This document shows positions 3,879-18,347 of a stretch of 64,000 nt of DNA, piece by piece; the first letter of the stretch is position 1, and each line of letters opens with the position of its first letter. The notes beneath the pieces are model-generated. The model was not told the DNA's origin. It saw nothing but the letters and a program-made list of their open reading frames with translations, and searched no databases. This DNA comes from an uncultured Anaerolineaceae bacterium (lineage in GTDB: Bacteria > Chloroflexota > Anaerolineae > Anaerolineales > E44-bin32). The position numbers and the translations under genes were made by a program. The DNA is taken from NCBI GenBank assembly GCA_964492745.1, contig CAZBLT010000007.1, positions 20,660 through 84,659 on the forward strand, written 5' to 3'.

Positions 3879-5102
3879 ATGTCTTGGCGGTCGGGGCGGG
3901 TGCTGGTAGCGGGGTTGGCGATTGCGCTGATTGGAGGGGGCGTGCTCAGCATACCCGCTATTTGGAACGGCATCGAATGGCGCCTCGACGCTGCGCTGGG
4001 GATTCTGCGGGGTCTGAGCTACCCGGCGCAGACGCTGCCGACGCCATCCGGCGCGGCCTCGCTTGCTGCGGTGCCTCCAGCCACGCCGCGCCCTCCAACG
4101 CCCACCACCCAGCCGACCGCAGCCCTGCCCACCCCCAGCGCCACCCCTCTGCCAAGCCAGGTCCTGCTTCCAGCGCCGGAATGGGAAAAACAGGATTGGA
4201 ATAACTGCGGCCCGGCCACTCTGGCTCTAGGGCTGCGTTTCTTCGGCTGGGAGGGTAACCAGTTCGATATCTCCGAACTCCTAAAGCCGGACCGTGGCGA
4301 TAAGAATGTAAACATCGACGAGTTGGTCTACTACGTACGGACCCGTGCCGGCTGGATGGAGGCTGACTATCGGGTGGGTGGGACGATCGAGGCCCTGAAA
4401 CGCTTCCTGGCCTATGGCTTGCCCGTCATCGTGGAGAAGGGATATATGGTCGAAAGTGATGGGCCGGATGAAGGCTGGGCGGGACATTATCTGCTGCTCA
4501 CAGGCTATGACGACGCTCGCCGGGTATTCGTGGGTCAGGACACCTTCGCCGGTCCAGATCAGGAAGTGGCCTATGAGGTGCTGGATGAGGGCTGGAAAGC
4601 CTTCAACCGCGCCTACCTGTTCCTCTATCCTGTGGCCGATCCACCACCGCTAGAATCGCTGCTTCTGGAAGATTTGGATGTCGATCTCAACCGCCAGCGG
4701 GCGCTTGAAACCGCCTGGGAAGAAACGGCGCGTGATCCACAGGATGCCTTCGCTTGGTTCAATGTCGGGACAAATCTGGTGTATTTCGAGCGCTATCGTG
4801 AGGCGGCCGGGGCCTACGATCGCGCCTTGGCGTTGGGGCTACCCTGGCGCTTCACTCGCTATCAATTCGGCCCCTATCTGGCATACTTCCACAGCGGGCG
4901 CACGCAAGATGTGATCGAGCTGGCGAACGCCACCTTGCGCCGCACGGCTAAAGCCGAGGAATCGCTGCTCTGGCGCGGATGGGCCCGCTACCGGCAGGGT
5001 GACGTTCTGGGGGCGCGGGAGGACTTCTTGGCTGCCCTGCGGGTCAATCCGAATTACCAGGACGCACGCTACGCGCTGAGTTTTATCTCGGAGGGGTCAT
5101 GA
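3879..5102 (+). CDS. Membrane-anchored C39-like cysteine peptidase with C-terminal TPR repeats
   Basis: N-terminal TM helix, Pro/Thr linker, QDWNNCGPATL (catalytic Cys), GHYLLLTGYD (His), TPR helices (AFAWFNVG...YDRALAL). Confidence 0.8.
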   Translation: MSWRSGRVLVAGLAIALIGGGVLSIPAIWNGIEWRLDAALGILRGLSYPAQTLPTPSGAASLAAVPPATPRPPTPTTQPTAALPTPSATPLPSQVLLPAPEWEKQDWNNCGPATLALGLRFFGWEGNQFDISELLKPDRGDKNVNIDELVYYVRTRAGWMEADYRVGGTIEALKRFLAYGLPVIVEKGYMVESDGPDEGWAGHYLLLTGYDDARRVFVGQDTFAGPDQEVAYEVLDEGWKAFNRAYLFLYPVADPPPLESLLLEDLDVDLNRQRALETAWEETARDPQDAFAWFNVGTNLVYFERYREAAGAYDRALALGLPWRFTRYQFGPYLAYFHSGRTQDVIELANATLRRTAKAEESLLWRGWARYRQGDVLGAREDFLAALRVNPNYQDARYALSFISEGS

Positions 5103-5222
5103 ATGCGCAACAAACAGACTGGATAGAATCCTGAGCGAAGTTTCAGAAATATGGGTACAAATATCCAGAATCCGGCCCTACGGGGCAAACCCACAGAGAA
5201 TGCAACGATGGAGGTTGGGACG

Positions 5223-5729
5223 ATGTTGATCAGCAAGGCCATGAACGAGGCGATGAACATGCAGATTGGCAGCGAACTGGCTGCCTCCAACCAGTACATA
5301 ACAATCGCTTCCTATTTTGACAGAGAGCAGCTTCCGGAGCTGGCGGATTTCTTCTTCCGGCAATCCGATGAGGAGCGCGAACACGCCATGAAGTTCGTGC
5401 ACTACATCCTCGAAGCCGGAGGCGAGGTAGACATCCCCGCGATCGAACCGGCCCAAGGGTCCATTGCATCGGCCCAGGAGGCGGTTCAGATGGCTCTGGA
5501 CTGGGAGATGGAGGTCACGAAGCAGATCAATGGTCTGATGGACCTCGCTATCCGTGAGAACGACCATCTGGCTCAGAACTTCCTGCGCTGGTTTGTGGAT
5601 GAGCAGCTTGAGGAAATCTCCACGATGGATGAGTTGTTGGGGGTAATCCGCCGCGCTGGTGACCAACTCCTGTTCGTGGAGGATTACGTCGTTCGCCGGG
5701 GCGATCCACACGCCGAGGAGGGTGGCTAG
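5223..5729 (+). CDS. ftnA: Non-heme ferritin
   Basis: Ferroxidase motifs E..ASNQY, QSDEEREHAMKF, E.EVT..IN, FLRWFVDEQLEE. GGAGG precedes ATG 5223. Confidence 0.93.
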   Translation: MLISKAMNEAMNMQIGSELAASNQYITIASYFDREQLPELADFFFRQSDEEREHAMKFVHYILEAGGEVDIPAIEPAQGSIASAQEAVQMALDWEMEVTKQINGLMDLAIRENDHLAQNFLRWFVDEQLEEISTMDELLGVIRRAGDQLLFVEDYVVRRGDPHAEEGG

Positions 5730-5793: not shown

Positions 5794-5947
5794 ACGCGAT
5801 TGCCTGGCGAGAGCCCCAGCCCTTGTCTTGGAAGGCTGCTTGCTATGGCGAGCCTGCGCGGTCTAGAATCGGCCCTTAGGGCATCTTGCCGCAATCATCT
5901 TCCACGCGTGTTTTGCGGGCCTGCCCCTTGTGCTATACTGCGCGACG

Positions 5948-6196
5948 ATGCATGCAGACCGAAGGACTACCGAGCGCTTGGCATCATGGCTTCGCGATTC
6001 GGGCCTAGGGGCCCTTTCTGCGGCCTTGCTTAGGGGCTTCCGGCCCTTGTCTGTGGCGGGGGCGCAGGCGCTTTATTTGCTCACGCCGCTGCTCGGACAG
6101 GGGGAAGGTGCTTGGGAGGCCTTCGCGAGGATGCTAGAGGACCCCGAGCAAGTCGATGACTTGATTGATTTGCTGGAGGAGGAACGCGGCCGGTGA
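5948..6196 (+). CDS. Small hypothetical protein, first gene of the GlmL-like operon
   Basis: TGcTATACT extended -10 lies 8 nt before ATG 5948; stop overlaps the next start (GTGA). Confidence 0.7.
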   Translation: MHADRRTTERLASWLRDSGLGALSAALLRGFRPLSVAGAQALYLLTPLLGQGEGAWEAFARMLEDPEQVDDLIDLLEEERGR

Positions 6197-6942
6197 TGGG
6201 CTTGGATTTGCTGGGTTTGGCGGTTCTGGGGCTGATGATCATCCTGCTGATGATCTATTTGGCCATCGGGAAACGTCAGGCCCCGATTTTCCGTGAGATC
6301 CCGGCCTTCGAGGCTCTGAAAGGCGCCATCGAGCGGGCCGTGGAGGCCGGCGAACGGGTGCATTTCTCGCTCGGGACAGGCTCTGTCATCGGCACGGATG
6401 TGGCCCCGGCGCTGGCAGGCCTGGCGACCCTGGCCGAGATTGCACGGGTCACCTCCTTGAGCGATCGGCCGGCGGTGGTCACGACAGGCGACGGGGCCAT
6501 GGCTATCCTCGCCCAAGATACGTTGAGATCGGCCTACACACAGGCTGGGGCGCTGGACCGCTATCGCCCCAGCGCGGCGCGCATGCTGGGCCCCACGCCC
6601 TTCAGCTATGTCGCCAGCCTCCCTTCGCTGCTATCCAATGAGGATGCTTCCGTGCACATCCTGATGGGCGCATTCGGCGCCGAAGGTGCCTTGGCGGCCG
6701 ATTTCGGCGAACGGCGAAATTGCTTCGTCATGGCTGGCACGGATGATGTCCAATCGCAGGCATTGCTGTATGCCACGGCGGCGCATCCACTCATCGGCGA
6801 GGAAGTCTTTGTGGGGGGCGCCTATTTGCGTAGGGACAAGGCTCATCTGGCCAGTTTGCGCGTGCAGGATGCCATGCGTTTCATCCTGATCTTGGGCATC
6901 CTTATGGGAGCCGTGCTGGGATTGCTGGGGGTGGATCTGTGA
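6193..6942 (+). CDS. Membrane protein with DUF6754-like domain
   Basis: TM helix, then FREIPAFEALKGAIERAVEAGERVHFSLGTG...LIGEEVFVGGAYL...SLRVQD, then C-terminal TM helix. Recalled as the DUF6754 pattern. Confidence 0.7.
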   Translation: MMGLDLLGLAVLGLMIILLMIYLAIGKRQAPIFREIPAFEALKGAIERAVEAGERVHFSLGTGSVIGTDVAPALAGLATLAEIARVTSLSDRPAVVTTGDGAMAILAQDTLRSAYTQAGALDRYRPSAARMLGPTPFSYVASLPSLLSNEDASVHILMGAFGAEGALAADFGERRNCFVMAGTDDVQSQALLYATAAHPLIGEEVFVGGAYLRRDKAHLASLRVQDAMRFILILGILMGAVLGLLGVDL

Positions 6943-7604
6943 GGCTGGGCTCCTATCTGCTATGGGCGGCGGTCGCAACCGCGACGGGGATCCTGGTTCT
7001 CCTGGGTTACTTCGTCCAGCTGGACGCGATCCCGCCGGAGGGGTGGCTGCAAAGCATCTTTCAATTGCGCCTGCTCCTAATGCGCTGGGCCGTGCTCCTG
7101 GCGGGTGTGGCGCTGTTCGTGGGTCTCATTCATCTGATGGCGGTTCATTGGAGCAAAGTCAGTGATCAGGCCCGGGGGTGGGGGTACAGCGCCATCTTCC
7201 TGTTGGCCTTCTTGGCCACGCTGATCTTGGGGCTAATCTTCGGGCCGGACAGCGCCGCGGTGCTGCTGTTCTTCAATTACATTCAGATGCCGGTCGAGAC
7301 TACACTTTCGGCACTGCTGGCGATCACGCTTGCCCTGGCGGGGTTTCGCCTTCTCTCCCGCCGCCCCGACCTGATCAGCGCGGTCTTCATAGGCACGGCC
7401 TTCTTGGTCCTGCTGGGCTCTGGGCCGGGCCTCATACCTGGCGGCAGTATGCTTGACAGCTTCTTTGGCGGGCTTCGCAACTGGCTGGCACAGGTATCCG
7501 CAGCCGGCGGTGCCAGGGGGATTCTGCTTGGAGTGGCCTTGGGATCGATCATGACCGGGCTGCGGGTTCTCCTGGCTATGGATAGGCCATATGGGGACGA
7601 GTGA
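6939..7604 (+). CDS. Polytopic hypothetical membrane protein
   Basis: About 6 hydrophobic segments; C-terminal GARGILLGVALG...GLRVLL.DRPY; GTGA overlaps on both sides. Confidence 0.8.
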   Translation: MRLGSYLLWAAVATATGILVLLGYFVQLDAIPPEGWLQSIFQLRLLLMRWAVLLAGVALFVGLIHLMAVHWSKVSDQARGWGYSAIFLLAFLATLILGLIFGPDSAAVLLFFNYIQMPVETTLSALLAITLALAGFRLLSRRPDLISAVFIGTAFLVLLGSGPGLIPGGSMLDSFFGGLRNWLAQVSAAGGARGILLGVALGSIMTGLRVLLAMDRPYGDE

Positions 7605-9712
7605 TGCCTGAAATTCGGTGTCCCATGTGCAGCGCTCCCAACCCGGAGACGGCTGAAGTCTGCGGGGAGTGCGGGGCGCGGCTGAAGCCCCTGGTTGCTG
7701 GTGGCGATCTCGGCATCCCGCCCGAGGAGGCCGGTGCGCCCGGGCCTCCGCCAGGCGCCGAAGACGGCGAAGAGGACTGGCTGGCGCGCATCCGCTCGCA
7801 GGCTCTGACGTCTGGGGGAGAGGAGCCAACGGAGGAGGAGCCTCGGGAAAGCCCCGCGCCAGATTGGCTGGGCCGGTTGCGTGAGGCGGATAGCGGCTAC
7901 GAGGAAGGACCTTCGGAAGGCGAATTGCCCGAATGGATGGATGAATTCATCGCCGCGGGGGAGGAGTCCGAAAGGGTAGCCGCGGAGGGTGAGGCGCTCG
8001 AGCAGGCCGATCAGGTGCCAGAGTGGCTGGCGCGCATCCGGGCCAAGCAAGCCGTGCAGGAGGCGGCGATCCCCGAGGAAGAGGATTGGTTGGAGCGCCT
8101 GCGCCAAGAGGGCGAAGCCGATATTCCAGCCGCAGAGGAGCCTCCACCCGAGATGGAAGCCGCGCCGCCGAGGGAGCCCCTGGAAGGGCCGATGCCTGAG
8201 CATGAGGCGGAGGAGGCCATCCAGGAGGGCCTTGGAGCGGAGGCGGAGCTAGAGGGGCTGCCGGCAGAGAGCCCTTTCTTTGCCGAGGATCTGGATATGC
8301 TCGCCGAGGAGATCCCGCTTCCCGAAGCCCAGGAAGAACCGCTCGAGGCACCATCCTTGGCACCGGAGGCACCATCTTTGGCGCCCGAGGATCTCGAAGG
8401 AGAAGCGTTGCCGCATGTTCCGGCGCTGGTCCTGGAGGATCAGTCCGAGGTCCCTCTGGTTGAGATCGGGGAATCTGACCTGGAGGGAGTGGAGCTGCCG
8501 GATTGGCTGGAAGATCTGCGGGCGGAAATCCCTGTATCGGCCGAGGAGCCCGGGGAAGAAGTCGAGTCGCCTGACCTGGCGCCTGCGACCTTGCCATCCT
8601 GGCTCGAGGCCATGCGCCCCACGGATGCCTTCCGGCCAGAGATCGAGATCGAGCGCGAGGAAGAGCAGCCAGTCGAATCGGCTGGCCCACTCGCGGGTCT
8701 GCGCGGGGTTCTTATGGCGGAGCCGGTCGTGGCCAAGCCGCGGATGGCCACCGCCACTGCGGCTCAGTTGGAGGTCACGGAGCGCCAGTACGCCCAGGCC
8801 GAATTGCTGCAGCGCCTAGTGGAGTACGAGCAGCAGGAAGTGGCCCCGCCTGAAGGCCGAGCGATGCGCGTACCCTTTGCGCGCTGGGCCATCAGTCTGG
8901 TCATGTTAGTGGCCGTGTTGATCCCCTTTTCGTTCGAGCGCATGGGCATACGCGGCTATCCGCTGCCCGCCAGCATCTCACCGGATCTGGCACCGCTGAT
9001 ACAACGAATTGGTGATCAGCCGGCAGATCGGCCGGTCTTGGTGGTCTTCGATTACACACCGGGCTACACCGGCGAATTGAGCGCCGTTGCTGGCGCCGTT
9101 GTGGGGCAGCTTACGCAACGGGGCTATCCCATTGCCACGCTGTCAACCCGGCCCACGGGCCCACCGCTGGCGGAGCGAATGTTCGCCAGCGCCGCGGCAG
9201 CGGGCGCCGAGATCTCGCATCTCGGGTATCTGCCCGGCGGTCCGACTGCGGTTCAACTCTTCTCCATCGCCCCGCGTGACGCCGTGCTTTCCGGGTTCCA
9301 CTTGCCGCAGGAAGGCGAAGAGAAGGATCCCTGGGCGATCGAGGGCCTGCGCCAGGTTCAGCGGCTCTCGGATTTCGGATTGGTGATTGTGATTACGGCC
9401 GGGACCGAAACCGCCCGGACTTGGGCGGAGCAGACTCACCCATGGATCGGCGAGACGCCCCTCATCATGGTGCTGAGCGCCGGGGCCGAGCCGCTGGTGC
9501 GTCCCTACTATGAGTCGGCCGACCCCAGGGTGGATGGCATTCTCACCGGATTGCCCTCGGCTGTGTCCTATCGCCAGTTGAGCGGCCAGCCCCAGCTGGT
9601 GGCTTCGCAGTGGAACACCTTCGGAACGGGCATGCTCGCAGCCCAATTAATCCTGCTCGCGGGCGGAGCCTATGGCTTCATCAGTTGGCTGATACGCAGG
9701 ACGCAAGGCTGA
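7601..9712 (+). CDS. Zinc-ribbon / acidic PxWL-repeat / TM / extracytoplasmic-domain protein
   Basis: CPMC..N......CGECG zinc ribbon, long Glu/Pro-rich region with about 7 (P/E)xW(L/M) motifs, TM helix near residue 430, globular alpha/beta domain, C-terminal TM helix. Confidence 0.8.
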   Translation: MMPEIRCPMCSAPNPETAEVCGECGARLKPLVAGGDLGIPPEEAGAPGPPPGAEDGEEDWLARIRSQALTSGGEEPTEEEPRESPAPDWLGRLREADSGYEEGPSEGELPEWMDEFIAAGEESERVAAEGEALEQADQVPEWLARIRAKQAVQEAAIPEEEDWLERLRQEGEADIPAAEEPPPEMEAAPPREPLEGPMPEHEAEEAIQEGLGAEAELEGLPAESPFFAEDLDMLAEEIPLPEAQEEPLEAPSLAPEAPSLAPEDLEGEALPHVPALVLEDQSEVPLVEIGESDLEGVELPDWLEDLRAEIPVSAEEPGEEVESPDLAPATLPSWLEAMRPTDAFRPEIEIEREEEQPVESAGPLAGLRGVLMAEPVVAKPRMATATAAQLEVTERQYAQAELLQRLVEYEQQEVAPPEGRAMRVPFARWAISLVMLVAVLIPFSFERMGIRGYPLPASISPDLAPLIQRIGDQPADRPVLVVFDYTPGYTGELSAVAGAVVGQLTQRGYPIATLSTRPTGPPLAERMFASAAAAGAEISHLGYLPGGPTAVQLFSIAPRDAVLSGFHLPQEGEEKDPWAIEGLRQVQRLSDFGLVIVITAGTETARTWAEQTHPWIGETPLIMVLSAGAEPLVRPYYESADPRVDGILTGLPSAVSYRQLSGQPQLVASQWNTFGTGMLAAQLILLAGGAYGFISWLIRRTQG
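8345..8386 (+). repeat. 21-bp in-frame tandem duplication (EAPSLAP x2)
   Basis: GAGGCACCATCCTTGGCACCG followed by GAGGCACCATCTTTGGCGCCC. Confidence 0.85.
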
Positions 9713-9731
9713 GAAAGGACAGGGAGCCAAA

Positions 9732-10454
9732 GTGCCCGGGCCCACGCTGGAATTCATCGGCACGATCGTCGCGACCTTGCTGACGATCATGGTTCTGAGC
9801 TATTTAATCGGCGATAACGCCTTCTTCCGTTTGGCAAGCTATCTGTTTGTTGGCGTGGCATCTGGATATGCCGGCGCCATCGCCTGGCACAATGTGATCC
9901 GGCCGGTGCTAGTGGATCCTTTGATCCGTTTTGGGCCGTCCGGCCTGCTCACACGCGAGGGCGTCGGTACGCTGCTGATCCCATGGATCCTATCTCTGCT
10001 GATGCTCCTGAAGCTTTCCCCCAGGACTGCACGATTCGGTGGTCTGCCCGTGGCGCTGGTGGTGGGAGTCGGGGCTGCGGTTGTCGTGGGTGGTGGGATC
10101 ACCGGCACCCTGCTCCCGCAGGCCCTGGCGGCGGGCGAGGCGTTGGGACCGGAGGCCATGATTCCTGCGGTGGGAGAGCCTATCGCTGGCTGGGCAGAGC
10201 GGCTCATCAGTGGCCTGGTGCTCTTCCTGGCGACCTTGAGCACCCTGATGTATTTCCGTTTCGGAGCCCGCCGGGAGGCCACCGGCAGGGTGCATCGATC
10301 CCGATTCACCCAGGGGATGGCCTATATGGGCCGCATATTCATCGCACTCACTTTCGGGGTGATGTACGCCGGTGCCATAACGGCCTCCATTCTAATCCTG
10401 GCCGAAAGAATGCATTTCCTGCGGGATGTGGTGATCGGATGGATGGGCGGATGA
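9732..10454 (+). CDS. Polytopic hypothetical membrane protein
   Basis: About 6 TM helices; LSYLIGDNAFFR...LFVGV and GRIFIALTFG..YAG motifs; within the operon. Confidence 0.8.
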   Translation: MPGPTLEFIGTIVATLLTIMVLSYLIGDNAFFRLASYLFVGVASGYAGAIAWHNVIRPVLVDPLIRFGPSGLLTREGVGTLLIPWILSLLMLLKLSPRTARFGGLPVALVVGVGAAVVVGGGITGTLLPQALAAGEALGPEAMIPAVGEPIAGWAERLISGLVLFLATLSTLMYFRFGARREATGRVHRSRFTQGMAYMGRIFIALTFGVMYAGAITASILILAERMHFLRDVVIGWMGG

Positions 10455-10464
10455 TGGTAACGGC

Positions 10465-12225
10465 ATGAGCGCGATCCTGGAAGCCGAAACCCTCCTGGCG
10501 ATCGATGTGGGCACGGTCAACACCCGCGCCTGTCTTTTCGATGTTGTCGATGGACGCTACCGGCTGATCGCCACGGGCCGAGCACTCACCACCGCGGGTC
10601 CGCCGCTCTTCGATGTCGGCGAGGGGGTGAGGATGGCGCTGGACCAAGTGCAGGCCGTCACCGGACGCCAGATCCTAGATGAATCGGACCTGCCGATCAT
10701 GCCTGTCACCAGTCGCGGGGCGGGCGTGGATCTGCTCGTGAGCACCGCTTCCGCGGGTCCCAAGGTCCGGACTGTATTGGTGGGATTGATGCCCGGCGTT
10801 TCGATGGCCAGCGCCCGTCGCATGGTCACCTCGACCTACCTGGAGTTAGTCGAAGAGGTGAGTTTGCTGGATGGACGCCACGATGACGAGAAGATCGACG
10901 CCATTGCCACTTCCCGACCGGATCTGGTCTTGATCGTGGGCGGGACGGATGGCGGCGCGCGCGAATCGGTCCTCCAGCTCGTGGACCTGGTCGCCGCTGC
11001 GGTGGGATTGATCCCTCGGGCCAAACGCCCCCGCATTATTTACGCCGGCAACAGGAACTTGGGTGCGGCAGTTGCGGAGCGCTTCGGTGAGGGCTTCGAT
11101 GTGGCCCTGGCGCCCAATGCTCGCCCGGGTTTAAGACACGAAAACCTCACTCAGGCACGGCTAGCGATTGGCGAGGCTATCGCCGAAGTGCGCGCCCGGC
11201 AGGTGGGCGGGTTCGAGGAGTTGGACCAGTGGTCCGGCGGATACTCGATGCTCACTGCGGATGCTTATGGGCGTGTGTTCCGCTACCTCAGTCGAATATA
11301 CGACCCCGAGAAGGGGGTGCTCGGCATCGATGTGGGGGCCACCCATACCATGGTCGCAGCGGCCTTTGAGGCCGATCTGCGCCTGAACGTGCAGACCGAT
11401 CTGGGCATCGGAAGCTCGGTGCTCGGGATTCTGCGCCGCAGCAGTCTCGAGAACGTCATGCGCTGGCTCCCCATCGAGATTTCGAAGACCAAGCTCCGCG
11501 ATTTCATCTACAACAAGGCTGCCTATCCCTATACAGTGCCCGCCAGCGCCGAGGAATTGCATCTGGAATTGGCGCTGGCAAGGGAGGTGGTTCATACCGC
11601 CATGCGTTTGGCGCGGCAGGGCTGGCCATCCGGGAAAAATTACGCCTCCGGCGCCCTCCTGCCGCCCATGGAACCGATACTTGCCAGTGGGGCTGTCTTT
11701 GCCCGTGCGCCGCGGCCGGGACTGGCCGCCTTGGCACTCTTGGATGGATTGCAGCCCACGGGCGTGACCACGCTTGTGCTGGATCCGCATGGCCTTTCGC
11801 CAGGGCTAGGCGCCGCCGCGGGGCCGGCCCCACTCTTGACCGTGCATGTGCTCGAATCCGGCAGTTACGTCAGCTTGGGCACGGTGGTTGCACCGGTGGG
11901 ACACGCCAGACCGGGCCGGCGGGTGCTAACGTTGCGTCTGGAACTGGAGCAGGGAGGCGAAGATATCGCCGGTGAAGTACGCATGGGACAACTGGCTGTG
12001 CTGCCCTTGCGGCAGGGGGAGTATGGCCGGCTGACACTGCGCCCCGAGAGGGGCATAGATGTGGGCTTCGGCGGGCCGGGGAAGGCGGGAGCGCTGCGCG
12101 TGGCGGGTGGTGCGGTGGGATTGATCCTCGATGCGCGCGGCCGGCCGCTTCCGCTGGCAAGGGATCCGGGCCTGCGGCGGGAGACCAACGAGAAATGGCT
12201 GTGGGATATCGGAGCGATGGAATGA
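10465..12225 (+). CDS. Glutamate mutase L (GlmL/MutL)-like ASKHA-fold ATPase
   Basis: Two actin/HSP70-type phosphate loops LAIDVGTVNT and LGIDVGATHT; STASAG; PDLVLIVGGTDGG; IYAGN; C-terminal GGAVGLILDARGRPL. Confidence 0.8.
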   Translation: MSAILEAETLLAIDVGTVNTRACLFDVVDGRYRLIATGRALTTAGPPLFDVGEGVRMALDQVQAVTGRQILDESDLPIMPVTSRGAGVDLLVSTASAGPKVRTVLVGLMPGVSMASARRMVTSTYLELVEEVSLLDGRHDDEKIDAIATSRPDLVLIVGGTDGGARESVLQLVDLVAAAVGLIPRAKRPRIIYAGNRNLGAAVAERFGEGFDVALAPNARPGLRHENLTQARLAIGEAIAEVRARQVGGFEELDQWSGGYSMLTADAYGRVFRYLSRIYDPEKGVLGIDVGATHTMVAAAFEADLRLNVQTDLGIGSSVLGILRRSSLENVMRWLPIEISKTKLRDFIYNKAAYPYTVPASAEELHLELALAREVVHTAMRLARQGWPSGKNYASGALLPPMEPILASGAVFARAPRPGLAALALLDGLQPTGVTTLVLDPHGLSPGLGAAAGPAPLLTVHVLESGSYVSLGTVVAPVGHARPGRRVLTLRLELEQGGEDIAGEVRMGQLAVLPLRQGEYGRLTLRPERGIDVGFGGPGKAGALRVAGGAVGLILDARGRPLPLARDPGLRRETNEKWLWDIGAME

Positions 12226-12265
12226 TTTCTGGCACCCTTCTTGCACACCTGGCGGTGTGTGTGCC

Positions 12266-13333
12266 ATGAGCGAATGGTTCTTGCCAGCCATCACGCATGT
12301 GCTGCGGATGACCGTCATTCGCCGGGAGCGCGTGCTCCCCGCACCTGGAGCCATTACCGTTCGGGTGAATGAAAAGGTCCAGGCAGCAGACGTGGTGGGC
12401 GAAGCCGAGGTTCAGGTCCGGCATTATTACCTGGACATCGCGCGCGGCCTGGGGGTGTCGGCCACCCAGGCGGTGAAGCTGATTCGTTGCGGGGAGGGGG
12501 AACGGATCGAAATGGGGGATGTGATCGCAGGACCGGTCGGGGTGGCTAGGCGGAGCGTAAGGGCTCCTGCCGACGGAATGGTGGTGGCCATTCGCAAGGG
12601 CCGTGTGCTGCTTGAAGCGCGAGGAGAGGTGGTTCAAGTGCGGGCCGGATTTCCGGGCGTCGTCATCGCCACAGATGGTTCTCAGGTGGTAACCCTGGAG
12701 GCAACCGGCGCGTTGGTACAAGGCATATGGGGCAATGCCCGCCAGGACTATGGTGTGATGCGCGTAGTGAGCGAAGGCCCTTCCGGGAGCCTGCAAACCG
12801 ATCAATTGGATGTGAACCTGCGGGGCGCCGTGCTGGTTGCAGGGACCTGCGACCACTCCGCCCCGCTGCACCAGGCCACCGAACTTTCGGTGCGTGGTGT
12901 AATTTTGGGTAGCATGAGTTCTGACCTGATTCCCGTAGCCCGCAGGCTTCCATTTCCCATTATGCTCACCGAGGGTTTTGGGCAGCGGCCGATGAATGCC
13001 CCCGCATTCCAGCTCTTCACCAGCAACGTGGGGCGGGAGGTGGCTATCGACGCGGGCACGCCCTGGGCGCAGCCCGGCCAGCGGCCGGAAGCCGTCATCC
13101 CGCTTCCCGCGAGCCGCACGCTCAATATGCCCGAGGAAGTCGTGCCGCTAAAACCCGGTGTTCGTGTAAGGGTGGTGCGGGAGCCACACCTGGGTGAGGT
13201 TGGGGTCGTGAAATCAATTCTGAGAGAGGCGATGCTGTACCCAAGTGGGATACGGGCCCGGACCGTAGAGATTGAGATCGAAGGGCTGGGATCCGCCAGG
13301 GTACCTATGGAGAATGTGGAGATCCTTCAGTGA
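12266..13333 (+). CDS. Conserved hypothetical partner of GlmL-like protein (barrel-sandwich-hybrid repeats, C-terminal KOW-like barrel)
   Basis: RRERVLPAPG.ITVRVNEKV...DVVG, VRAPADGMV, LTEGFG..PM, LKPGVRVRVVREPHLGEVGVV...VPMENVEI. Start at ATG 12266. Confidence 0.75.
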   Translation: MSEWFLPAITHVLRMTVIRRERVLPAPGAITVRVNEKVQAADVVGEAEVQVRHYYLDIARGLGVSATQAVKLIRCGEGERIEMGDVIAGPVGVARRSVRAPADGMVVAIRKGRVLLEARGEVVQVRAGFPGVVIATDGSQVVTLEATGALVQGIWGNARQDYGVMRVVSEGPSGSLQTDQLDVNLRGAVLVAGTCDHSAPLHQATELSVRGVILGSMSSDLIPVARRLPFPIMLTEGFGQRPMNAPAFQLFTSNVGREVAIDAGTPWAQPGQRPEAVIPLPASRTLNMPEEVVPLKPGVRVRVVREPHLGEVGVVKSILREAMLYPSGIRARTVEIEIEGLGSARVPMENVEILQ

Positions 13334-13335: not shown

Positions 13336-13985
13336 CGAGCAGGTGATTCGCCGCCAGCCACACAGGCTTGAATCGGCGAATGGCCGCCAGGCTGAGGAGT
13401 AGAAATCATGGCTGAGGAATTCGAAATCGGCGAACCACTACCCGAGGAATCATCGAACCGCACTTTTGTCATCGCCGCGGCTGGACTGGGCGCGCTATTG
13501 GTTCTGAGCATGATCTGCCTTGCGGTCTATGCATTGGTCTTGGCGCCTCGCCAGAGAGCGGCGCAGGCCACTCAGGCGATCGAGATCAACTTGCAGAACA
13601 CGCAGCAAGCGCTGACACAGACGGCGGCGGTCGCGCAGCAAACCCCATCGCGCACGCCCACGCCCACGCGGACGCAAGGGCCCACAGCGACGGCCACTCC
13701 CACCCAGGTGGTGGTCCTGCCAACGAATACCCCCACGCCCTTCCTGACTCTGCCCACACTTTCCCCGGAGACGGCCACCGCCGCCGCCCAGCAGACGCTT
13801 GAGGCTGCGGTGGGGGGTGGAGGCGCGACCCCCTCCGCCACGGCGCTGCCTGCAACCGGTTTCGGCGACGAGGTCAGCGTGCCCTTGATCGCGCTCTTGG
13901 GCGGAGCCCTGGTGGCGGTCATCTTCATCGCCCGAAGCCTGCGCGAGCGAGTGGCCTCGTAACCTCAGCCGCGATCACCTGCTCG
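13336..13985. repeat. Nested long-range inverted repeats bracketing the 13408-13962 CDS
   Basis: CGAGCAGGTGAT (13336-13347) is the reverse complement of ATCACCTGCTCG (13974-13985). GGCTGAGG (13390-13397) is the reverse complement of CCTCAGCC (13963-13970). Confidence 0.8.
13408..13962 (+). CDS. Thr/Pro-rich surface protein with N-terminal TM helix and C-terminal LPXTG-type sorting signal
   Basis: TM helix at about residues 20-46, TPT-rich linker, LPATG followed by a hydrophobic helix and basic tail (ARSLRERVAS). GAGGAG Shine-Dalgarno. Confidence 0.8.
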   Translation: MAEEFEIGEPLPEESSNRTFVIAAAGLGALLVLSMICLAVYALVLAPRQRAAQATQAIEINLQNTQQALTQTAAVAQQTPSRTPTPTRTQGPTATATPTQVVVLPTNTPTPFLTLPTLSPETATAAAQQTLEAAVGGGGATPSATALPATGFGDEVSVPLIALLGGALVAVIFIARSLRERVAS

Positions 13986-14049: not shown

Positions 14050-15372
14050 ATGCCGAAGGTCATAGTCCCCTTTTCAGGATTGAGGCAGGATTTGATCACA
14101 ACCGTAGGGTCCGGCGAATGTGCTTCCATCGTCGGCCTGAGCAATAGCGGGAAATCGATCGTGATGCGCTCGCTGGCCTCACCCCAGGCCAGGAAGCTCT
14201 ATAGCGAACACACTGGCCGAGCGGGCATGCTGGTTTATGTGGATTGCAATCGGGCGGTGTCGATCTCGGCGCAGGCATTCTATGAGGTTGTTCTGCGCTC
14301 GCTACTCGAGGAATTGTCCAAATTGAAAGACCATAGCCTCGTGGAGAAGATCCGCCGCTATCATCAAGTGGTTACCGAGGCCGAAAACGCCTTCGAGGCC
14401 TCCCTCTCCTTCAACCTGGCGCTTTCGGATCTATGCGAAAAGTTGGAACAGGACCTCTGCCTGCTGCTGGACGAGTTTGATGAGATCTACGCCGCATTGG
14501 ATGAGCGCACGCTTCTGAACCTGCGGGCTTTGCGAGATCGGTACGCTGACCAGCTGGTCCTCATCACCGCCACCATCCGCAAGCTTCCCGAAATCCGTAA
14601 CGTCCAGGTGGAAGATGAGTTCGCTGAACTGTTCTCGCGCTTCACCTTCCATATGCCACTCTTGGATGCGGAGGGTTGCAAGGCACTGCTGCAGGAATTG
14701 AAGCTTCCCAGCTTGACGAAGGAGCTGACCGGGGCGGCCATCCGGCTCTCCGGCGGTCATCCAGGCTTGCTGGTGGCCGTGGCGCAGATCTTCGCCAGCA
14801 TGCCGGCGGGGCGGAGGGGGGATCCCCAGGAGTGGGTGCGGACCGAGCCACTCCCCAGGGCCGAATGCCTCAAGCTATGGAATCAGATGACGCCTGAGGA
14901 GCACGCGGCGCTGATCACGCTGGCGCTGGAGCAGGAGGCCGGGATCCCTTCCCAGCAACTGCGCCATCTCCAAGAGCTGGGCGTTGTGCATGAGCGGGAA
15001 CTCTTCTCGCCGATCTTCGCCGAGTTTGTACGCCGCAAGGGGCGGGCGCCCGATACCGAAACGCAGGGCGTGTTCCTCGACGCCGATGCAGGGGATGTGT
15101 GGGTTGATGGCATCCGGGTCCCTGTTCTTACGGATCTCGAATACCGCCTGCTGGAACTGCTCTATGAGCGTCGAGACAAACTTACCGACAAATTTCAGAT
15201 TGTCACGGCCGTGTGGGGTGAGGAATATCTGGGTGAGGTCGATGATGCGCGGGTTGAGAAGCTGATCAGTCGTCTGCGCGCGAAAGTCGAGCCAGACCCT
15301 TCCAATCCTCGCTACATCATCACCCGGCGTGGCCGGGGTTATAAATTGCTCAGTCATCCGAAGGTTGAGTGA
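14050..15372 (+). CDS. P-loop (STAND/AAA-like) ATPase fused to OmpR-type winged-helix DNA-binding domain
   Basis: Walker A GLSNSGKS, Walker B LLLDEFD, SGGHP motif, C-terminal LTDLEYRLL...ISRLRAKVEPDPSNPRYIITRRGRGY. Confidence 0.85.
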   Translation: MPKVIVPFSGLRQDLITTVGSGECASIVGLSNSGKSIVMRSLASPQARKLYSEHTGRAGMLVYVDCNRAVSISAQAFYEVVLRSLLEELSKLKDHSLVEKIRRYHQVVTEAENAFEASLSFNLALSDLCEKLEQDLCLLLDEFDEIYAALDERTLLNLRALRDRYADQLVLITATIRKLPEIRNVQVEDEFAELFSRFTFHMPLLDAEGCKALLQELKLPSLTKELTGAAIRLSGGHPGLLVAVAQIFASMPAGRRGDPQEWVRTEPLPRAECLKLWNQMTPEEHAALITLALEQEAGIPSQQLRHLQELGVVHERELFSPIFAEFVRRKGRAPDTETQGVFLDADAGDVWVDGIRVPVLTDLEYRLLELLYERRDKLTDKFQIVTAVWGEEYLGEVDDARVEKLISRLRAKVEPDPSNPRYIITRRGRGYKLLSHPKVE

Positions 15373-18347
15373 AGGCCGTTCCGAAATCCAAAGGCAGCCT
15401 GATGGACGCACGAGTGCTTGCGTATGATCCCTCGCCCGAAGGGCGGAGGTTGATCCGCCAGGGCCTGTGGTCTCCGGAGGGGGACTGGCGTCTCCTGATT
15501 CGGGCGTCGCTGGAGAAATGCCTTTCGGCCTTGGAGAAGACACCAGTCGACGCGCTGGTCTTGGGCTTGCCGATGGAGCCGGCTCACCTCTTCCAACTGC
15601 TCGCCACAGCACGCAGACTTGCCTTGCCGCCTTTATGGATCGCGCTGGGGGATACTCCCGCCCGCAAGGATTCTGAGGGGTGGATGCAGGTCTCCAAAAG
15701 GTATGAGGGGCTGGAAGATCTCCGCCGGCAGATGCCCGACCTGCTGCGCATCCACCGGCTCATAAACCTCGAGCGCACGCTGACGCTGCCCGGGCCTGCC
15801 GGGGAAGAAAGCGCCGTATGGCGTCTCGTCGATATAGGGCTTGACGGGCTTCGCTGGGCCGGTTTTCAGGCGATGTATTTCGCCATCGACCCGCACTCCC
15901 GGCGATGGACATTGCGCGGCTCGGGCTACCCCGCGGCCATTCGGAATGCCATCATCGAGCTCTCGGCCAGCCTCGGTGGGGTGGCACCGCGTGTGGAAGA
16001 TCTTTCGCCTGGGCTGGCAGATGTGGTCCGGGGCCGGGCAGACATGCAGATCGACTCGCTTGCAGAAGGCCTGCTAGCCATCTTGCCCAAGGAAGCAGCA
16101 GATCGCTTGGAGAAGCTTCTAAGAAGTGAGGGGGTTCACGCGCTGTACATGGCGCCTGTCGCTGGCGAGGGGATACTAGCCATCGGGGAGCGACCAACCG
16201 AGGCCGAGCGATTGGCGTTGCGAGCCTTCTCGGAACATTGGGGCAATCTGCTGCGACAGGCGCGAGCCCTTGACGCGCTCAGCCGCAGGGCACACGCCTT
16301 GGGCGGGTTGCAACAAGTGTCGCTCAAACTCTCCTCGACCCGCGATCCCGATGCGCTTTTGGGAGAAGTTCTTGGGTTGCTCGAACAGGTGGTTCCTTTC
16401 GATGCTGCTGCGGTTCTCATGGAGCAGGGCGGGCGGCTCATAGCGCAAGGTGAATGCTTAAGGCAGTCCGGTTTAAGTGGGCGGATTCTGGGCAAAGCCA
16501 TTGCCAGAGGCGCCGGAAGTTGCATTGATGAAGCCCTGGCTGCTCGATCGCCCCTGCGAGTGGATGATCTGGATGCCCGTTCGGTTGTGGGCGAGGGAGG
16601 TTTGTGGGAGGGGATTCGCTCCTGGCTATGCATCCCTATCTACTGGCAAACCTCTCGGATGGGCGTCTTGCTGCTAGGGGTGGGGGAGCGCGGATATTAT
16701 AGCCAGAGCCATCTCGAAGTTGCGGAGCAGTTCGCCCGCCAATTGGGGGTGGCGCTGGAAAATGCACGGCTGCTTATGACTTTGGCCGAGCGTTCGGAGA
16801 AACTCCATTTGGTAGGCGAAATCGGGCGCTTCGCTGTTTCGATCCTGGACACACAGCAGCTTGCAAGAGAAGTCGCGTTGCGGGTCCTCCAGATCTTTGC
16901 CTGTGATGCGGCTGGCATCATGCTGCTGTCCGATGGGATCCTGCGATCGCATGCCTTCCTGGCCGCGCCGGGTGGGCGCGACCTCAGGGGCATTGCGGAT
17001 CTAGTACTTGCGGAGTTGCCTGCTCTCGCACAGGCCCTGCATGAGAACCGCCCGCTGCGATTGGGGCCAGCATCGGAAGCATGGGATCTCATCCGTCCCT
17101 CCGCGGTTCCAGAAGAGAGCGAGTGCTGGATGATCCCGCTGGCGGCCGCGTCGGAAGTCATGGGTGCCCTCGTTCTCTTTGGTTCGAGGGAGGGGGTCCT
17201 TTCTCCAGAGGAGCTAGATGTGCTGGAAGTCCTCGCCGGCCAGCTGGCGATATCCCTGGTCAATGCCCGCCTCTTCGGGGAGATCAGGGCCCATGCGGCC
17301 CAATTGGAGGTTCGTGTGGCGGCCCGGACCGAAGAGTTGCATGCCGCGAAGGAGCGAACAGAAGCCATTCTGCGTTCCGTGGGCGATCCTGTCTTGGTGC
17401 TCGATTTGCGCGGTGAACTACTGCTGGTAAACCCACGAGCCCAGGCATTGCTCAAAGGCCCTTCCGGCGAGATGCTTATGGATCGAATCCGGCGTCTCCT
17501 GACGGTGGATGGCCAGACCCAGGAAAACCTCGAGGTGGGAGATGCTACCTTGCAGGCGATGGCCTCGCCGGTGGAGTGGAATGGCCGGGCGATTGGAACG
17601 GTGGTCGTGTTGCGGGATATCACCCGCCTGCGGGAGCTGGACAAGTTGAAGAGCCAGTTCGTCGCCAACGTGTCGCATGAGCTGCGCACTCCGCTGACCA
17701 ACATCAAGCTCTATATGGGGCTCCTTCGCCGGGCGCGGGGCGCACGCGTGGAGAAGTACTTCGAAGTCATGGACCGTGAGGCAGCCCGGCTGAGCCAGAT
17801 GATCGAGGATCTGCTGGATATCTCGAGGCTGGAAGCTGGAGAGCGACCTCAACCGGAGGCTTTCTCGCTCGGAGCCCTCCTGGCGGAGATCGCCGAGAAC
17901 CACCGGCCTGCCTGCGTGGATAAGCGATTGGCCTTCGATCTTCACATAGTTCAGGATGTGATGATTGAAGCCGATATGGGCCAGATATTGCGGGTCCTCA
18001 CTAATCTTCTCTCGAATGCCATAGCCTACACGCCCGCCGGCGGCAGGGTCCGATTGGAGCTGGTGGGCGAGGAGAAAATTGAGGGAAAGCCGCACGCTAA
18101 GGTCGTCGTGGAGGATACGGGCATCGGCATCGACAAGGACGACATGCCCCATATCTTTGACCGCTTTTATCGCGGAAGCCTGGCTCGAGAGCATAAAATT
18201 CATGGCAGCGGCTTGGGGCTAGCCATCGTGAAGGAAATCCTGGATAATCATCGCGCCCGCATCGCGGTAGACTCAGAGCCCGGCCAGGGAAGCCGTTTCA
18301 CCCTTTGGCTTCCCTGCGAACAGGAGACAGAACGAACGAATGGATAA
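15369..18347 (+). CDS. Cytoplasmic multi-GAF/PAS sensor histidine kinase
   Basis: Two GAF domains ending ALENARL and SLVNARL, PAS-like domain, H-box VSHELRTPL, N-box NLLSNAI, DTGIGI and GSGLGL. Confidence 0.93.
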   Translation: MKAVPKSKGSLMDARVLAYDPSPEGRRLIRQGLWSPEGDWRLLIRASLEKCLSALEKTPVDALVLGLPMEPAHLFQLLATARRLALPPLWIALGDTPARKDSEGWMQVSKRYEGLEDLRRQMPDLLRIHRLINLERTLTLPGPAGEESAVWRLVDIGLDGLRWAGFQAMYFAIDPHSRRWTLRGSGYPAAIRNAIIELSASLGGVAPRVEDLSPGLADVVRGRADMQIDSLAEGLLAILPKEAADRLEKLLRSEGVHALYMAPVAGEGILAIGERPTEAERLALRAFSEHWGNLLRQARALDALSRRAHALGGLQQVSLKLSSTRDPDALLGEVLGLLEQVVPFDAAAVLMEQGGRLIAQGECLRQSGLSGRILGKAIARGAGSCIDEALAARSPLRVDDLDARSVVGEGGLWEGIRSWLCIPIYWQTSRMGVLLLGVGERGYYSQSHLEVAEQFARQLGVALENARLLMTLAERSEKLHLVGEIGRFAVSILDTQQLAREVALRVLQIFACDAAGIMLLSDGILRSHAFLAAPGGRDLRGIADLVLAELPALAQALHENRPLRLGPASEAWDLIRPSAVPEESECWMIPLAAASEVMGALVLFGSREGVLSPEELDVLEVLAGQLAISLVNARLFGEIRAHAAQLEVRVAARTEELHAAKERTEAILRSVGDPVLVLDLRGELLLVNPRAQALLKGPSGEMLMDRIRRLLTVDGQTQENLEVGDATLQAMASPVEWNGRAIGTVVVLRDITRLRELDKLKSQFVANVSHELRTPLTNIKLYMGLLRRARGARVEKYFEVMDREAARLSQMIEDLLDISRLEAGERPQPEAFSLGALLAEIAENHRPACVDKRLAFDLHIVQDVMIEADMGQILRVLTNLLSNAIAYTPAGGRVRLELVGEEKIEGKPHAKVVVEDTGIGIDKDDMPHIFDRFYRGSLAREHKIHGSGLGLAIVKEILDNHRARIAVDSEPGQGSRFTLWLPCEQETERTNG

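Follow-up and report, generated by a model that had tools for sequence, protein, structure and literature searches.

An operon pairing a relative of the glutamate mutase accessory protein GlmL with a newly defined partner protein and orphan membrane proteins was identified in the window, the whole stretch of 64,000 nucleotides that was analysed. The operon is real, tightly packed and widespread in Chloroflexota. It almost certainly represents a conserved module, and very probably one unrelated to glutamate mutase. We read the region, with confidence and doubt evenly balanced, as an undescribed envelope module of Chloroflexota, in which an ATP-driven switch would act on a membrane complex reaching the cell wall.

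Organization and conservation of the operon

Seven tightly packed genes (g1 to g7, 5948-13333), all on the same strand, were read directly from the list of open reading frames (Table 1). As the original prediction had described, they are co-oriented behind one promoter and include three GTGA stop/start overlaps (6193-6196, 6939-6942 and 7601-7604). These overlaps indicate that translation of the genes is coupled. All gene types that it named are present, but their actual order is small protein, DUF6754 protein, polytopic protein, zinc-ribbon bitopic protein, polytopic protein, ATPase and partner. The predicted unit of 5931-13333 also proved real but was ended too early: in Anaerolineales the conserved unit runs on to g8 and g9. 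Longer frames are open from 5930 for g1 and from 12131 for g7. The start of g1 is most likely ATG 5948, given that GTG 5930 is partly covered by the -10 element, and g7 starts at ATG 12266 as do its 355-aa orthologs.

Table 1. Features of the operon and the adjoining downstream genes (aa, amino acids; TM, transmembrane)
Feature	Position	Strand	Description	Basis
Promoter	5931-5939	+	extended -10 element TGCTATACT	sequence reading; -35 not recognisable
g1	5948-6196	+	82-aa protein, acidic C-terminus	frame and translation
g2	6193-6942	+	DUF6754; TM helix, Rossmann-like alpha/beta domain (about 35-215), second TM helix	
g3	6939-7604	+	orphan polytopic membrane protein, 6 hydrophobic segments	hydropathy
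g4	7601-9712	+	Zn-ribbon, acidic WL-repeat region, TM 424-442, roughly 235-aa domain, TM 680-698	
g5	9732-10454	+	orphan polytopic membrane protein, Gly-rich helices, 5 hydrophobic segments (count depends on the hydropathy threshold chosen by the analyst)	
g6	10465-12225	+	divergent GlmL/MutL-family ASKHA ATPase	PF13941, 199.2 bits, residues 11-464
g6, C-terminal domain	residues about 465-586		beta-rich, subfamily-specific	motif IDARGRPL
g7	12266-13333	+	partner of g6, 355 aa	AF2 model, fold matches, predicted complex
g8	13408-13962	+	N-terminal tail, TM helix, Pro/Thr-rich linker, LPATG, hydrophobic stretch, Arg-rich end	
g9	14050-15372	+	AAA_16 NTPase and OmpR/PhoB-type winged-helix DNA-binding domain	
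Histidine kinase	15369-18347	+	GAF (three), PAS, HisKA, HATPase_c	

The extended -10 element TGcTATACT is present where it had been predicted, and TG(C/T)TATACT was retained in all nine orthologous Anaerolineales loci despite diverged flanks. The distance from the motif to the ATG of the first gene was 7-8 nt, except in two loci with 17 nt. The retention of the motif so close to the start codon (7-17 nt) points to a leaderless or nearly leaderless operon mRNA, from which g1 would probably be translated. A generic sigma-70 scanner, which requires a -35 hexamer, missed the element (one site found versus 2.1 expected).

The distribution of the module was analysed by profile searches of 301 Chloroflexota genomes. 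The ATPase family and g7 were each detected in 168 genomes; 141 carried both, 27 and 27 only one of them, and 106 neither. Among the 79 genomes encoding DUF6754, g7 was present in 74. The original prediction depended on the genes being linked in other genomes as well, and this linkage holds. In 57 of the 79 genomes DUF6754 and the ATPase were on one contig with 3-9 kb between them, and a hand count placed them on the same contig in all 16 DUF6754 assemblies of at most 10 contigs. The genes g2-g3-g4-g5-g6 were colinear in 15/15 DUF6754-bearing loci from other families across the phylum. In eight of these 15 loci g6 and g7 were adjacent, as they were in all five loci without DUF6754; where g7 was not adjacent, a single strong copy was found elsewhere in 5/5 genomes searched (267-292 bits). 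Families f20 and f27 combined DUF6754 with an ATPase-family match, g7 not being found, and DUF6754 and the ATPase lay on different contigs in the four genomes of this type that were checked. Of 15 Anaerolineales loci, all contained g6, g7 and g8, 13 contained g9 and 11 contained g2; the four loci without g2 were all cut by a contig end.

The ATPase and its partner protein

The predicted ATPase with two DxG phosphate loops was recovered as g6, with loops D14-x-G16 and D289-x-G291. Residues G16, G159, D289, G291, G409, D440, D556, R558, P561 and W578 were invariant in 27 orthologs. With GlmL/MutL proteins (PF13941, NF040745, TIGR01319) g6 shares the whole ASKHA core, both phosphate loops and the GG.DGG motif. 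It differs from them in falling far under the NCBIfam cut-offs, in a C-terminal extension of about 120 residues containing the invariant motif IDARGRPL, in its obligate partner g7 and membrane-protein neighbours, and in having no mutase nearby or in the genome. A profile of the 27 orthologs found no relative of g6 among solved structures; its best match was PilM and a PilM-PilN fusion (E 0.033, not significant). Seven of the 27 aligned orthologs, those from loci without an adjacent g7, carried an additional disordered tail. Its end is basic-aromatic (K/R-R-G/S-W/F-F-G/R-R-K type), and we take it to resemble the ends that target MinD and FtsA to the membrane.

The AF2 model of g7 (pLDDT 88.4) was divided into a barrel-sandwich hybrid domain (about 19-146), a swivelling beta/beta/alpha domain (about 148-280) and a KOW/SH3-like domain (294-355). 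The model and its fold matches bear out the barrel-sandwich and KOW domains expected beforehand, the latter matching NusG and Spt5. The best fold matches of the swivelling domain were the phosphohistidine domains of Enzyme I (2wqd, Z 11.6), rifampin phosphotransferase (Z 10.5) and pyruvate phosphate dikinase (Z 7.4-8.0). Enzyme I and rifampin phosphotransferase were closer to it than the swivelling domain of the diol dehydratase reactivase alpha subunit (Z 8.0, rmsd 3.0, 118 residues; Foldseek match 1nbw_A, E 8.5e-3). Unlike the Enzyme I-type phosphotransferases, g7 has no attached kinase or PEP-binding domains. At the phospho-His site of Enzyme I the g7 of the window has a His (CDH), but the family does not conserve it, and the ortholog in locus L038 carries GGSGIS at this position.

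Complex prediction, one of the checks suggested beforehand, was run on g6 and g7 and gave ipSAE values of 0.88, 0.87 and 0.88, while the best of three controls reached 0.00. Among 157 solved complexes, 116 attained the mark that g6-g7 reached, compared with 2 among 215 mismatched pairs. The runs shared at least 93% of contacts, with a partner pLDDT of at least 87. In the predicted 1:1 complex g7 wraps g6 using all three domains, and the interface includes g6 342-365 (with the invariant P355 and P359) and g7 237-239 (with the conserved G237 and G239). On the basis of the co-occurrence in 141 genomes and of the predicted complex, g7 is defined here as the partner protein of the g6 ATPase, and we are fairly confident that the two proteins bind each other. 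In a single case g6 and g7 were fused in one 940-aa chain; the reading frame seems to shift at the 3' end of g6, and a sequencing error may be the cause.

Membrane proteins and downstream genes

Matches to g1 in tblastn searches (38-81% identity) were located directly upstream of g2 in nine Anaerolineales loci, and weaker ones were obtained in loci L022, L024 and L028; g1 matched nothing in Pfam at E<=10. The DUF6754-like protein of the original prediction is g2 (PF20539, 121.6 bits). It has two TM segments and was modelled by AF2 (pLDDT 87.9, pTM 0.82); by the positive-inside rule the Rossmann-like domain faces the cytoplasm. E51, G159, L200 and G202 were invariant among orthologs. The fold ranking of g2 was flat and generic, with KtrC/KTN on top at Z 10.9 and Z 8.8 still at rank 50, and Foldseek gave no match at E<=1e-3.

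The zinc-ribbon/acidic-repeat bitopic protein that had been described corresponds to g4. The CxxC...CxxC is present at its N-terminus, although the Pfam score of 22.3 bits is under the cut-off of 25. The acidic region contains 23% Glu and six (D/E/P/S)WLxxLR repeats; in orthologs the repeat region varied from 287 to 1909 aa, and the C-terminal TM-domain-TM part was kept. The zinc ribbon and the acidic repeat arm are assigned to the cytoplasm, and the domain between the TM helices is probably outside the cell. At E<=1 no Pfam family was common to more than four of 21 orthologs of g3, and its Atlas neighbours were "hypothetical" without exception. No profile similarity was found between g3 and g5 (hhalign probability 0.15%).

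In Anaerolineales g8 followed g7 in 15/15 loci, and it was missing from most lineages outside Anaerolineae. The series LP(A/T/V)TG, hydrophobic segment and basic tail was present in 14 of 17 g8 orthologs, a putative sortase-type sorting signal by which g8 would be linked to the wall; two sortase matches were obtained in the genome of the window. The short N-terminal tail before the TM helix is conserved as MAE(D/E)FE(V/I)G.PLPEESSNRTF. The next gene, g9, followed g8 in 13 of the 15 loci, and one of the two exceptions stops at a contig edge. It scored 67.9 bits for Trans_reg_C and 31.7 bits for AAA_16, just below the cut-off of 32.6, and is likely a regulator of the unit in Anaerolineales. The histidine kinase gene has a GTG start overlapping the g9 stop by 4 nt. 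A full-length ortholog at the equivalent place was found only in locus L001, and membership of the kinase in the unit is uncertain. In genome G223, where the g7 ortholog is unlinked, the gene after it encodes a receiver-GAF-HisKA kinase.

Proposed mechanism and alternative explanations

We propose that g6, with its actin fold and intact nucleotide motifs, and the three-domain g7 form a 1:1 heterodimeric cytoplasmic engine, encoded with a membrane platform of the four orphan proteins g2, g3, g4 and g5. In Anaerolineales the wall-linked g8 and the AAA/winged-helix regulator would be added. Judged from gene linkage, the membrane proteins are the likely target of the engine, and the ATPase would be physically seated on them. 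When ATP is bound and hydrolysed between its two ASKHA lobes, g6 may reposition the swivelling domain of g7, supplied in trans. This motion could reach the membrane subunits by way of the cytoplasmic domain of g2 and of the tails that g4 and g8 extend into the cytoplasm, and may switch, gate or assemble a complex spanning from cytoplasm to wall. We hold such an ATP-driven switch with slightly less than even confidence; transport, wall or envelope assembly and signalling are its candidate outputs.

The architecture of the module appears to resemble that of the ATP-dependent reactivases DdrAB/PduGH (2d0o, 1nbw), which likewise combine an ASKHA ATPase, a swivelling beta/beta/alpha domain and a Rossmann-like partner. 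Here, however, the swivelling domain is on a separate chain, no dehydratase is present, and g2, the candidate for the Rossmann-like partner, is anchored in the membrane and has a generic fold match. The likeness is architectural only, as the g6 profile found no reactivase among solved structures. The placement of the module seems similar to that of PilM/PilN and FtsA, where a cytoplasmic ASKHA protein is encoded with bitopic proteins having short conserved cytoplasmic N-termini. PilM and FtsA differ from g6 in lacking an obligate soluble partner, and the unit contains no pilus or division genes.

In an alternative reading, g6 would form polymers or oligomers at the membrane, as FtsA, MreB or PilM do, organising its bitopic and polytopic partners for wall growth, filament integrity or surface movement, with ATP controlling assembly instead of a swivel. 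The intact ASKHA fold and motifs, the PilM match and the basic-aromatic tails agree with this. PilN binds PilM through a short N-terminal tail before its TM helix, an arrangement similar to that of g8. By family tallies and a hand check, the SEDS wall polymerase was present in 168/168 g7-bearing genomes, and g7 in 0/20 listed SEDS-less genomes. This pattern agrees with the proposed switch as well as with a scaffold, but it is weak since the genomes are related to each other. Against a scaffold, the genome of the window already holds its own FtsA, two MreB and two FtsZ genes, and g6 gave no score with the FtsA, MreB or PilM (PilM_2) Pfam models at E<=0.01. Polymerisation is not known to us in the GlmL/hydantoinase branch, and the predicted wrap of g7 around g6 is more easily reconciled with a closed heterodimer than with a filament. 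We regard a scaffold as unlikely.

Somewhat less probable again is an energised transporter or export device, with g3 and g5 as the channel and g6-g7 as its cytoplasmic ATPase, the cargo being either an envelope component, such as g8 or a wall polymer, or a small solute whose passage the Rossmann-like (KTN/RCK-like) domain of g2 would gate. Invariant Gly, Pro and Arg positions in orthologs of both polytopic proteins, the surface protein with a sorting signal and the top folds of g2, KTN/RCK gating domains of K+ transporters (Z 10.9-9.8), are in favour. These KTN matches are not set apart from other Rossmann folds, however, and only one Gly of the GxGxxG-like loop in g2 is conserved. No transporter family consistently matched g3 or g5 (21 orthologs each), the restricted distribution of g8 is a further point against, and no ASKHA ATPase is known to us to drive a transporter.

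In many lineages g6-g7 were found without DUF6754, with housekeeping genes adjoining, suggesting that the engine does not strictly need the DUF6754 membrane platform. As a soluble metabolic enzyme or chaperone, the pair might have a small molecule or another soluble enzyme as its target, after the model of hydantoinase/oxoprolinase-type ASKHA proteins or as a reactivase for another radical enzyme, with the membrane genes as unrelated neighbours. One g6 relative outside the phylum did show a Hydantoinase_A match beside PF13941. This explanation is improbable given the colinearity with g2-g5 in distant families, the overlapping stops and starts and the tails resembling membrane-targeting ends. 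In addition, a g4-like protein preceded g6 in four of the five DUF6754-less loci (two of the four with a Zn-ribbon Pfam match), and no enzyme gene recurred beside the g6-g7 pair in the loci examined.

That g6 is an ordinary GlmL, serving a B12-dependent glutamate mutase or related aminomutase encoded elsewhere, is scarcely credible despite the Pfam MutL match and public names, since g6 scored 77.7 versus a cut-off of 475 for the GlmL equivalog NF040745, 62 versus 204 for TIGR01319 and 40.9 versus 600 for NF040744. The role of GlmL itself is, to our knowledge, only proposed. As predicted, no mutase subunit is present in the window, and glutamate mutase E (GlmE, PF06368) was not found in its genome, which is 91% complete. 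PF06368 exceeded the cut-off in 6 of the 301 genomes, in 1 of the 168 with g7 and in none of the 79 with DUF6754, so strict co-occurrence with a B12 mutase fails for glutamate mutase, the one B12 enzyme covered by the profile set. These results support the earlier view that the ATPase serves another system and that the usual annotation hides it, relatives of g6 being called "glutamate mutase L" in public records. Canonical GlmL copies are separate genes (450-570 bits, full-length open frames of 455-486 aa). They adjoin GlmE in two of the three genomes with both (G056 and G235) and lie on a different contig in G268, and genome G076 carries both types of ATPase.

Operon organization and promoter

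The seven-gene operon that carries a GlmL/MutL-family ASKHA ATPase (g6) may encode an undescribed envelope machine of Chloroflexota with a cell wall and of some other phyla; we put this reading forward tentatively. A reactivase-type ATPase, with the swivel part on a chain of its own (g7), would have been repurposed from B12-enzyme repair to drive a four-protein membrane complex, which in Anaerolineales would be covalently tethered to the wall. The basis for this proposal is a conserved operon, intact ASKHA motifs, a co-inherited predicted partner, linkage to four membrane proteins and no glutamate mutase. According to the original prediction, the ATPase serves a different, membrane-associated complex. 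The linkage to the membrane proteins is conserved and no glutamate mutase goes with it; that the ATPase acts on the complex is what we infer.

The seven co-oriented open frames span 5930-13333. GTGA stop/start overlaps join the first four genes (6193-6196, 6939-6942 and 7601-7604), and the later genes are spaced by 19, 10 and 40 nt. The co-orientation and the three overlaps proposed originally can be read directly in the sequence. The extended -10 element TGCTATACT lies before the first gene. Its form TG(C/T)TATACT was kept in all nine orthologous Anaerolineales loci, in which the upstream sequence had otherwise diverged, which upholds the promoter of the original prediction. The distance from this motif to the ATG of the first gene was 7-8 nt in seven of the nine loci and 17 nt in two. 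The element was absent from the output of a generic promoter scan, which requires a -35 hexamer. The start of g1 was taken as ATG 5948 because GTG 5930 overlaps the -10 element, and with this start the operon mRNA would be leaderless or nearly so.

Features of the operon and of its flanking genes (window positions)
Feature	Position	Strand	Description
C39-peptidase/TPR protein	3879-5102		N-terminal TM helix, Pro/Thr-rich linker, Peptidase_C39_2, TPR repeats
Ferritin-like gene	5151-5729		PF00210, 127.8 bits
Extended -10 element	5931-5939		TGCTATACT
g1	5948-6196	+	82 aa; no family match; 38-81% identity ahead of g2 in nine loci
g2	6193-6942	+	Pfam DUF6754 (PF20539), 121.6 bits, above the gathering cut-off of 27
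g3		+	Polytopic; 6 hydrophobic segments
g4		+	703 aa; CxxC...CxxC ribbon, Pfam scores just under cut-off
g5		+	Polytopic; 5 hydrophobic segments
g6		+	586 aa; GlmL/MutL-family ASKHA ATPase
g7	12266-13333	+	355 aa; no Pfam match over any cut-off
g8	13408-13962		
g9	14050-15372	+	AAA_16-like NTPase domain and OmpR-type winged helix
Histidine kinase	15369-18347	+	992 aa; three GAF, PAS, HisKA, HATPase_c; GTG start overlaps g9 stop by 4 nt

The ferritin-like gene separates the C39-peptidase/TPR gene from the operon promoter. A tblastn search with the ferritin found no match in L001, the locus whose ATPase is 97% identical to that of the window, and in L001 g1 lies ~250 nt from the C39/TPR gene, vs ~850 nt in the window. 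The difference suggests that a gene was recently gained or lost immediately ahead of the operon promoter. Conservation of the C39-peptidase/TPR gene beside the operon was seen only in L001.

The ATPase and its predicted partner

The g6 protein matched Pfam PF13941 (MutL/GlmL) with 199.2 bits (cut-off 27) over residues 11-464, equivalent to model positions 2-447 of 450. Among 27 orthologs G16, G159, D289, G291, G409 and D440 were invariant, as was a C-terminal block composed of D556, R558, P561 (IDARGRPL) and W578, and the domain containing this block falls outside the Pfam model. No sequence relative of g6 was found among solved structures, and a profile of the 27 orthologs searched against them gave six matches at E<=10, none of which was a reactivase.

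The model of g7 (pLDDT 88.4, pTM 0.75) comprised three domains. Residues ~19-146 were modelled as a barrel-sandwich hybrid matching EmrA, NqrA and RnfC_N-type folds, residues ~148-280 as a swivelling beta/beta/alpha domain, and residues 294-355 as a KOW/SH3-like end matching NusG and Spt5. The swivelling domain was best matched by Enzyme I (2wqd, Z 11.6, rmsd 2.3, 106 residues); further matches included rifampin phosphotransferase (Z 10.5) and diol dehydratase reactivase alpha (2d0o_A, Z 8.0, rmsd 3.0, 118 residues). In 36 g7 sequences, His was neither invariant nor 90%-conserved in any column, and the ortholog of L038 displayed GGSGIS in place of the Enzyme I phospho-His. Since the phospho-accepting His is not conserved, g7 is not a phospho-carrier, and a phosphohistidine carrier of the Enzyme I/PPDK type was rejected.

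Directly after g6, g7 was detected in 15 of 15 Anaerolineales loci, 8 of 15 DUF6754-bearing loci of other families and all five DUF6754-less loci; where g7 was not adjacent, one strong copy was located elsewhere in each of the five genomes searched. Among 301 Chloroflexota genomes, 141 encoded both, 27 only an ATPase-family match, 27 only g7 and 106 neither, and g7 was single-copy in 168 (the tallies take in the unpublished genomes G038, G272 and G227). The predicted g6-g7 complex gave ipSAE values of 0.88, 0.87 and 0.88, the best of three controls reaching 0.00; 116 of 157 solved complexes attained this mark, as did 2 of 215 mismatched pairs. Contact agreement among the runs was at least 93% with a partner pLDDT of at least 87, and the predicted interface included P355 and P359, which are invariant in g6, as well as the conserved g7 residues G237 and G239. 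By its co-inheritance and predicted binding, g7 is the predicted partner of g6.

A single database protein among 8000 candidates scored, P0307 (940 aa), combines g6 with g7. At its junction the chain continues through the short overlap of frames observed in the locus L055, which points to a frameshift, of natural origin or from a sequencing error, as the probable cause, so the protein was given little weight. A 608-aa open frame around g7 in the genome G175 was not a fusion. In public data the g7 family forms 3762 clusters at 50% identity, and the best 120 relatives listed were named 'hypothetical protein' or had no name. The best DUF6754 scores of the sample belonged to G012 and G061 (family f20) and G025 and G049 (family f27), and their ATPase-family match was not on the same contig as DUF6754; in f27 the open frame of this match had only 513 aa and covered model positions 2-252. 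In these four genomes g7 was not found at E<=1e-10, and they may hold a variant of the system without this partner.

The architecture resembles that of DdrA/PduG-type reactivases, with an ASKHA core, a swivel domain and a Rossmann-like partner. However, the swivel domain is inserted in the ATPase chain of the reactivases, whereas it is on the separate protein g7 here; they have a small Rossmann-like beta subunit, whereas g2 is only generically Rossmann-like; and they are adjacent to a B12 dehydratase, which is missing from this unit. PilM-PilN and FtsA are similar in placement, the g6 profile matching PilM only with E 0.033. These likenesses are not family membership.

It is unlikely that g6 forms a membrane-anchored actin-like scaffold. 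At E<=0.01 it matched PF13941 only, and no model of FtsA, MreB or PilM (PF14450, PF06723, PF11104). Replacement of the division or elongation actins was rejected, as FtsA, MreB and FtsZ are encoded elsewhere in the genome. On the side of a membrane location, the g6 orthologs of seven loci (L017-L020, L022, L027 and L031; families f19, f35, f56 and f65) were 680-772 aa long and had an extra disordered tail with a basic-aromatic end of the K/R-R-G/S-W/F-F-G/R-R-K type. These were exactly the seven loci in which g7 is not adjacent. The tail is similar to the ends by which MinD and FtsA are targeted to the membrane and by this analogy suggests that g6 works at the membrane, a location that the preferred reading of a driven membrane complex shares.

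Membrane proteins, linkage and downstream genes

In the model of g2 (pLDDT 87.9), a three-layer alpha/beta domain lies between two TM helices. Foldseek gave no match to this structure at E<=1e-3, and its fold matches formed a flat Rossmann-type list, with KtrC/KTN on top (Z 10.9) and Z 8.8 at rank 50; the predicted fold is only 'Rossmann-like' and generic. The g4 protein contains a domain of ~235 aa between two TM helices and an acidic region (23% Glu) with six (D/E/P/S)WLxxLR repeats, and the variable length of the acidic arm gives orthologs of 287 to 1909 aa. Paralogy was rejected for g2/g4 and for g3/g5, as BLASTP gave no match and profile comparison of the orthologs with hhalign yielded a probability of 0.74% for the first pair and 0.15% for the second. 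An energised transporter, in keeping with two polytopic proteins beside an ATPase, is unlikely; in a Pfam scan of 21 orthologs each of g3 and g5 at E<=1, no family was matched by more than four members, and the clusters listed for them in the Atlas were all 'hypothetical'.

DUF6754 was found in 79 of the 301 genomes. By hand comparison, it was located on one contig with the ATPase gene, 3-9 kb apart, in 57 of the 79; in 19, with fragmented assemblies, the two were on separate contigs; three had no ATPase-family match. The two were linked in all 16 assemblies of at most 10 contigs, and the order g2-g3-g4-g5-g6 was kept in 15 of 15 fetched DUF6754-bearing loci, so that the linkage of the operon genes is conserved, as claimed originally. 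The DUF6754-less lineages keep g6-g7, usually behind a g4-like protein (four of five loci, two with a Zn-ribbon Pfam hit), and the minimal module is therefore g4-like, g6 and g7. The neighbours of these reduced loci and of unlinked g7 were housekeeping genes only, with no recurring enzyme. Such surroundings would suit a soluble enzyme or chaperone with unrelated neighbours, which is improbable beside the conserved gene order.

After g7 in Anaerolineales come g8 and then g9. The g8 protein consists of a conserved N-terminal tail MAE(D/E)FE(V/I)G.PLPEESSNRTF, a TM helix, a Pro/Thr-rich linker, LP(A/T/V)TG, a hydrophobic stretch and a basic tail. The sorting pattern was present in 14 of 17 orthologs (LPATG, a hydrophobic segment and RSLRERVAS in the window's copy), and two sortase matches (PF04203) were found in the window's genome. 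By its motifs g8 is a predicted LPXTG sortase substrate, with putative cleavage and wall linkage.

For a machine that drives the membrane complex, we propose that g6-g7 would act as an ATP-driven switch, in which the swivelling domain, supplied in trans by g7, moves with the nucleotide state. This motion might reach the complex via the cytoplasmic parts of three proteins, namely the domain of g2 and the tails of g4 and g8, and the outer domain of g4, plus g8 where present, would link the complex to the wall. A SEDS wall polymerase was encoded in all g7-bearing genomes and g7 in none of the 20 listed SEDS-less genomes; the sampled genomes being mutually related, this co-occurrence is weak evidence.

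A YkuD L,D-transpeptidase (88 bits; L038 2906-4030, - strand) lies directly upstream of the unlinked g7 in G231; no other wall enzyme was seen beside a gene of the system. In L038 and L039, the gene after g7 encodes a receiver-domain protein that also has a repeat linker and a C-terminal domain of no assigned family, and the unlinked g7 ortholog of G223 (L037) is followed by a receiver-GAF-HisKA hybrid kinase.

Relation to glutamate mutase and significance

The window's genome, at 91% completeness, yielded no glutamate mutase E (PF06368). This protein was over the cut-off in six of the 301 genomes, none of the 79 with DUF6754 and one of the 168 with g7, the last being a 113-aa fragment in G281. 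The g6 protein failed the GlmL models of NCBIfam (NF040745 equivalog, 77.7 vs 475; TIGR01319 subfamily, 62 vs 204) and that of Or-4, the GlmL-related ornithine-degradation protein (NF040744, 40.9 vs 600). Canonical GlmL genes were separate genes scoring 450-570 bits, with full-length copies of 455-486-aa open frames; they adjoin GlmE in G056 and G235, and G076 has a canonical-type copy together with a cluster ATPase copy. Despite the PF13941 match, an ordinary GlmL is thus very improbable, and the original view of an ATPase with no link to glutamate mutase agrees with these counts and missed cut-offs.

Public records label relatives of g6 'glutamate mutase L', one of them in Armatimonadota, so the usual annotation does hide this ATPase, as had been suspected. 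The name misleads metabolic reconstruction, as B12-dependent glutamate fermentation would be inferred where it is absent. In literature outside subscription journals, no description was found for DUF6754, PF13941 or combinations of MutL, glutamate mutase, Chloroflexi and actin-like, and among the matches listed for GlmL or ASKHA no title or abstract was relevant. No system-level match came from Pfam, NCBIfam, PADLOC or the Protein Data Bank. An anti-phage defence system was rejected, as PADLOC-DB 2.0 returned 0 families for all nine proteins at E<=0.001.

If the operon does encode an envelope machine, cytoplasmic ATP hydrolysis would be turned into cell-surface work or signalling. An ATP-driven device of this kind would put the actin fold to a new use, beside those in FtsA, MreB and PilM, and would supply a missing piece of the envelope biology of a major phylum whose members are mostly uncultured. 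Experiments in cultured carriers could start from the predicted g6-g7 heterodimer and from the conserved promoter of the leaderless type.

Canonical-type GlmL matches of 454-494 bits also occur in G076, G148, G184, G266 and G125, in which no glutamate mutase E was over the cut-off. These copies may be helpers of another aminomutase.
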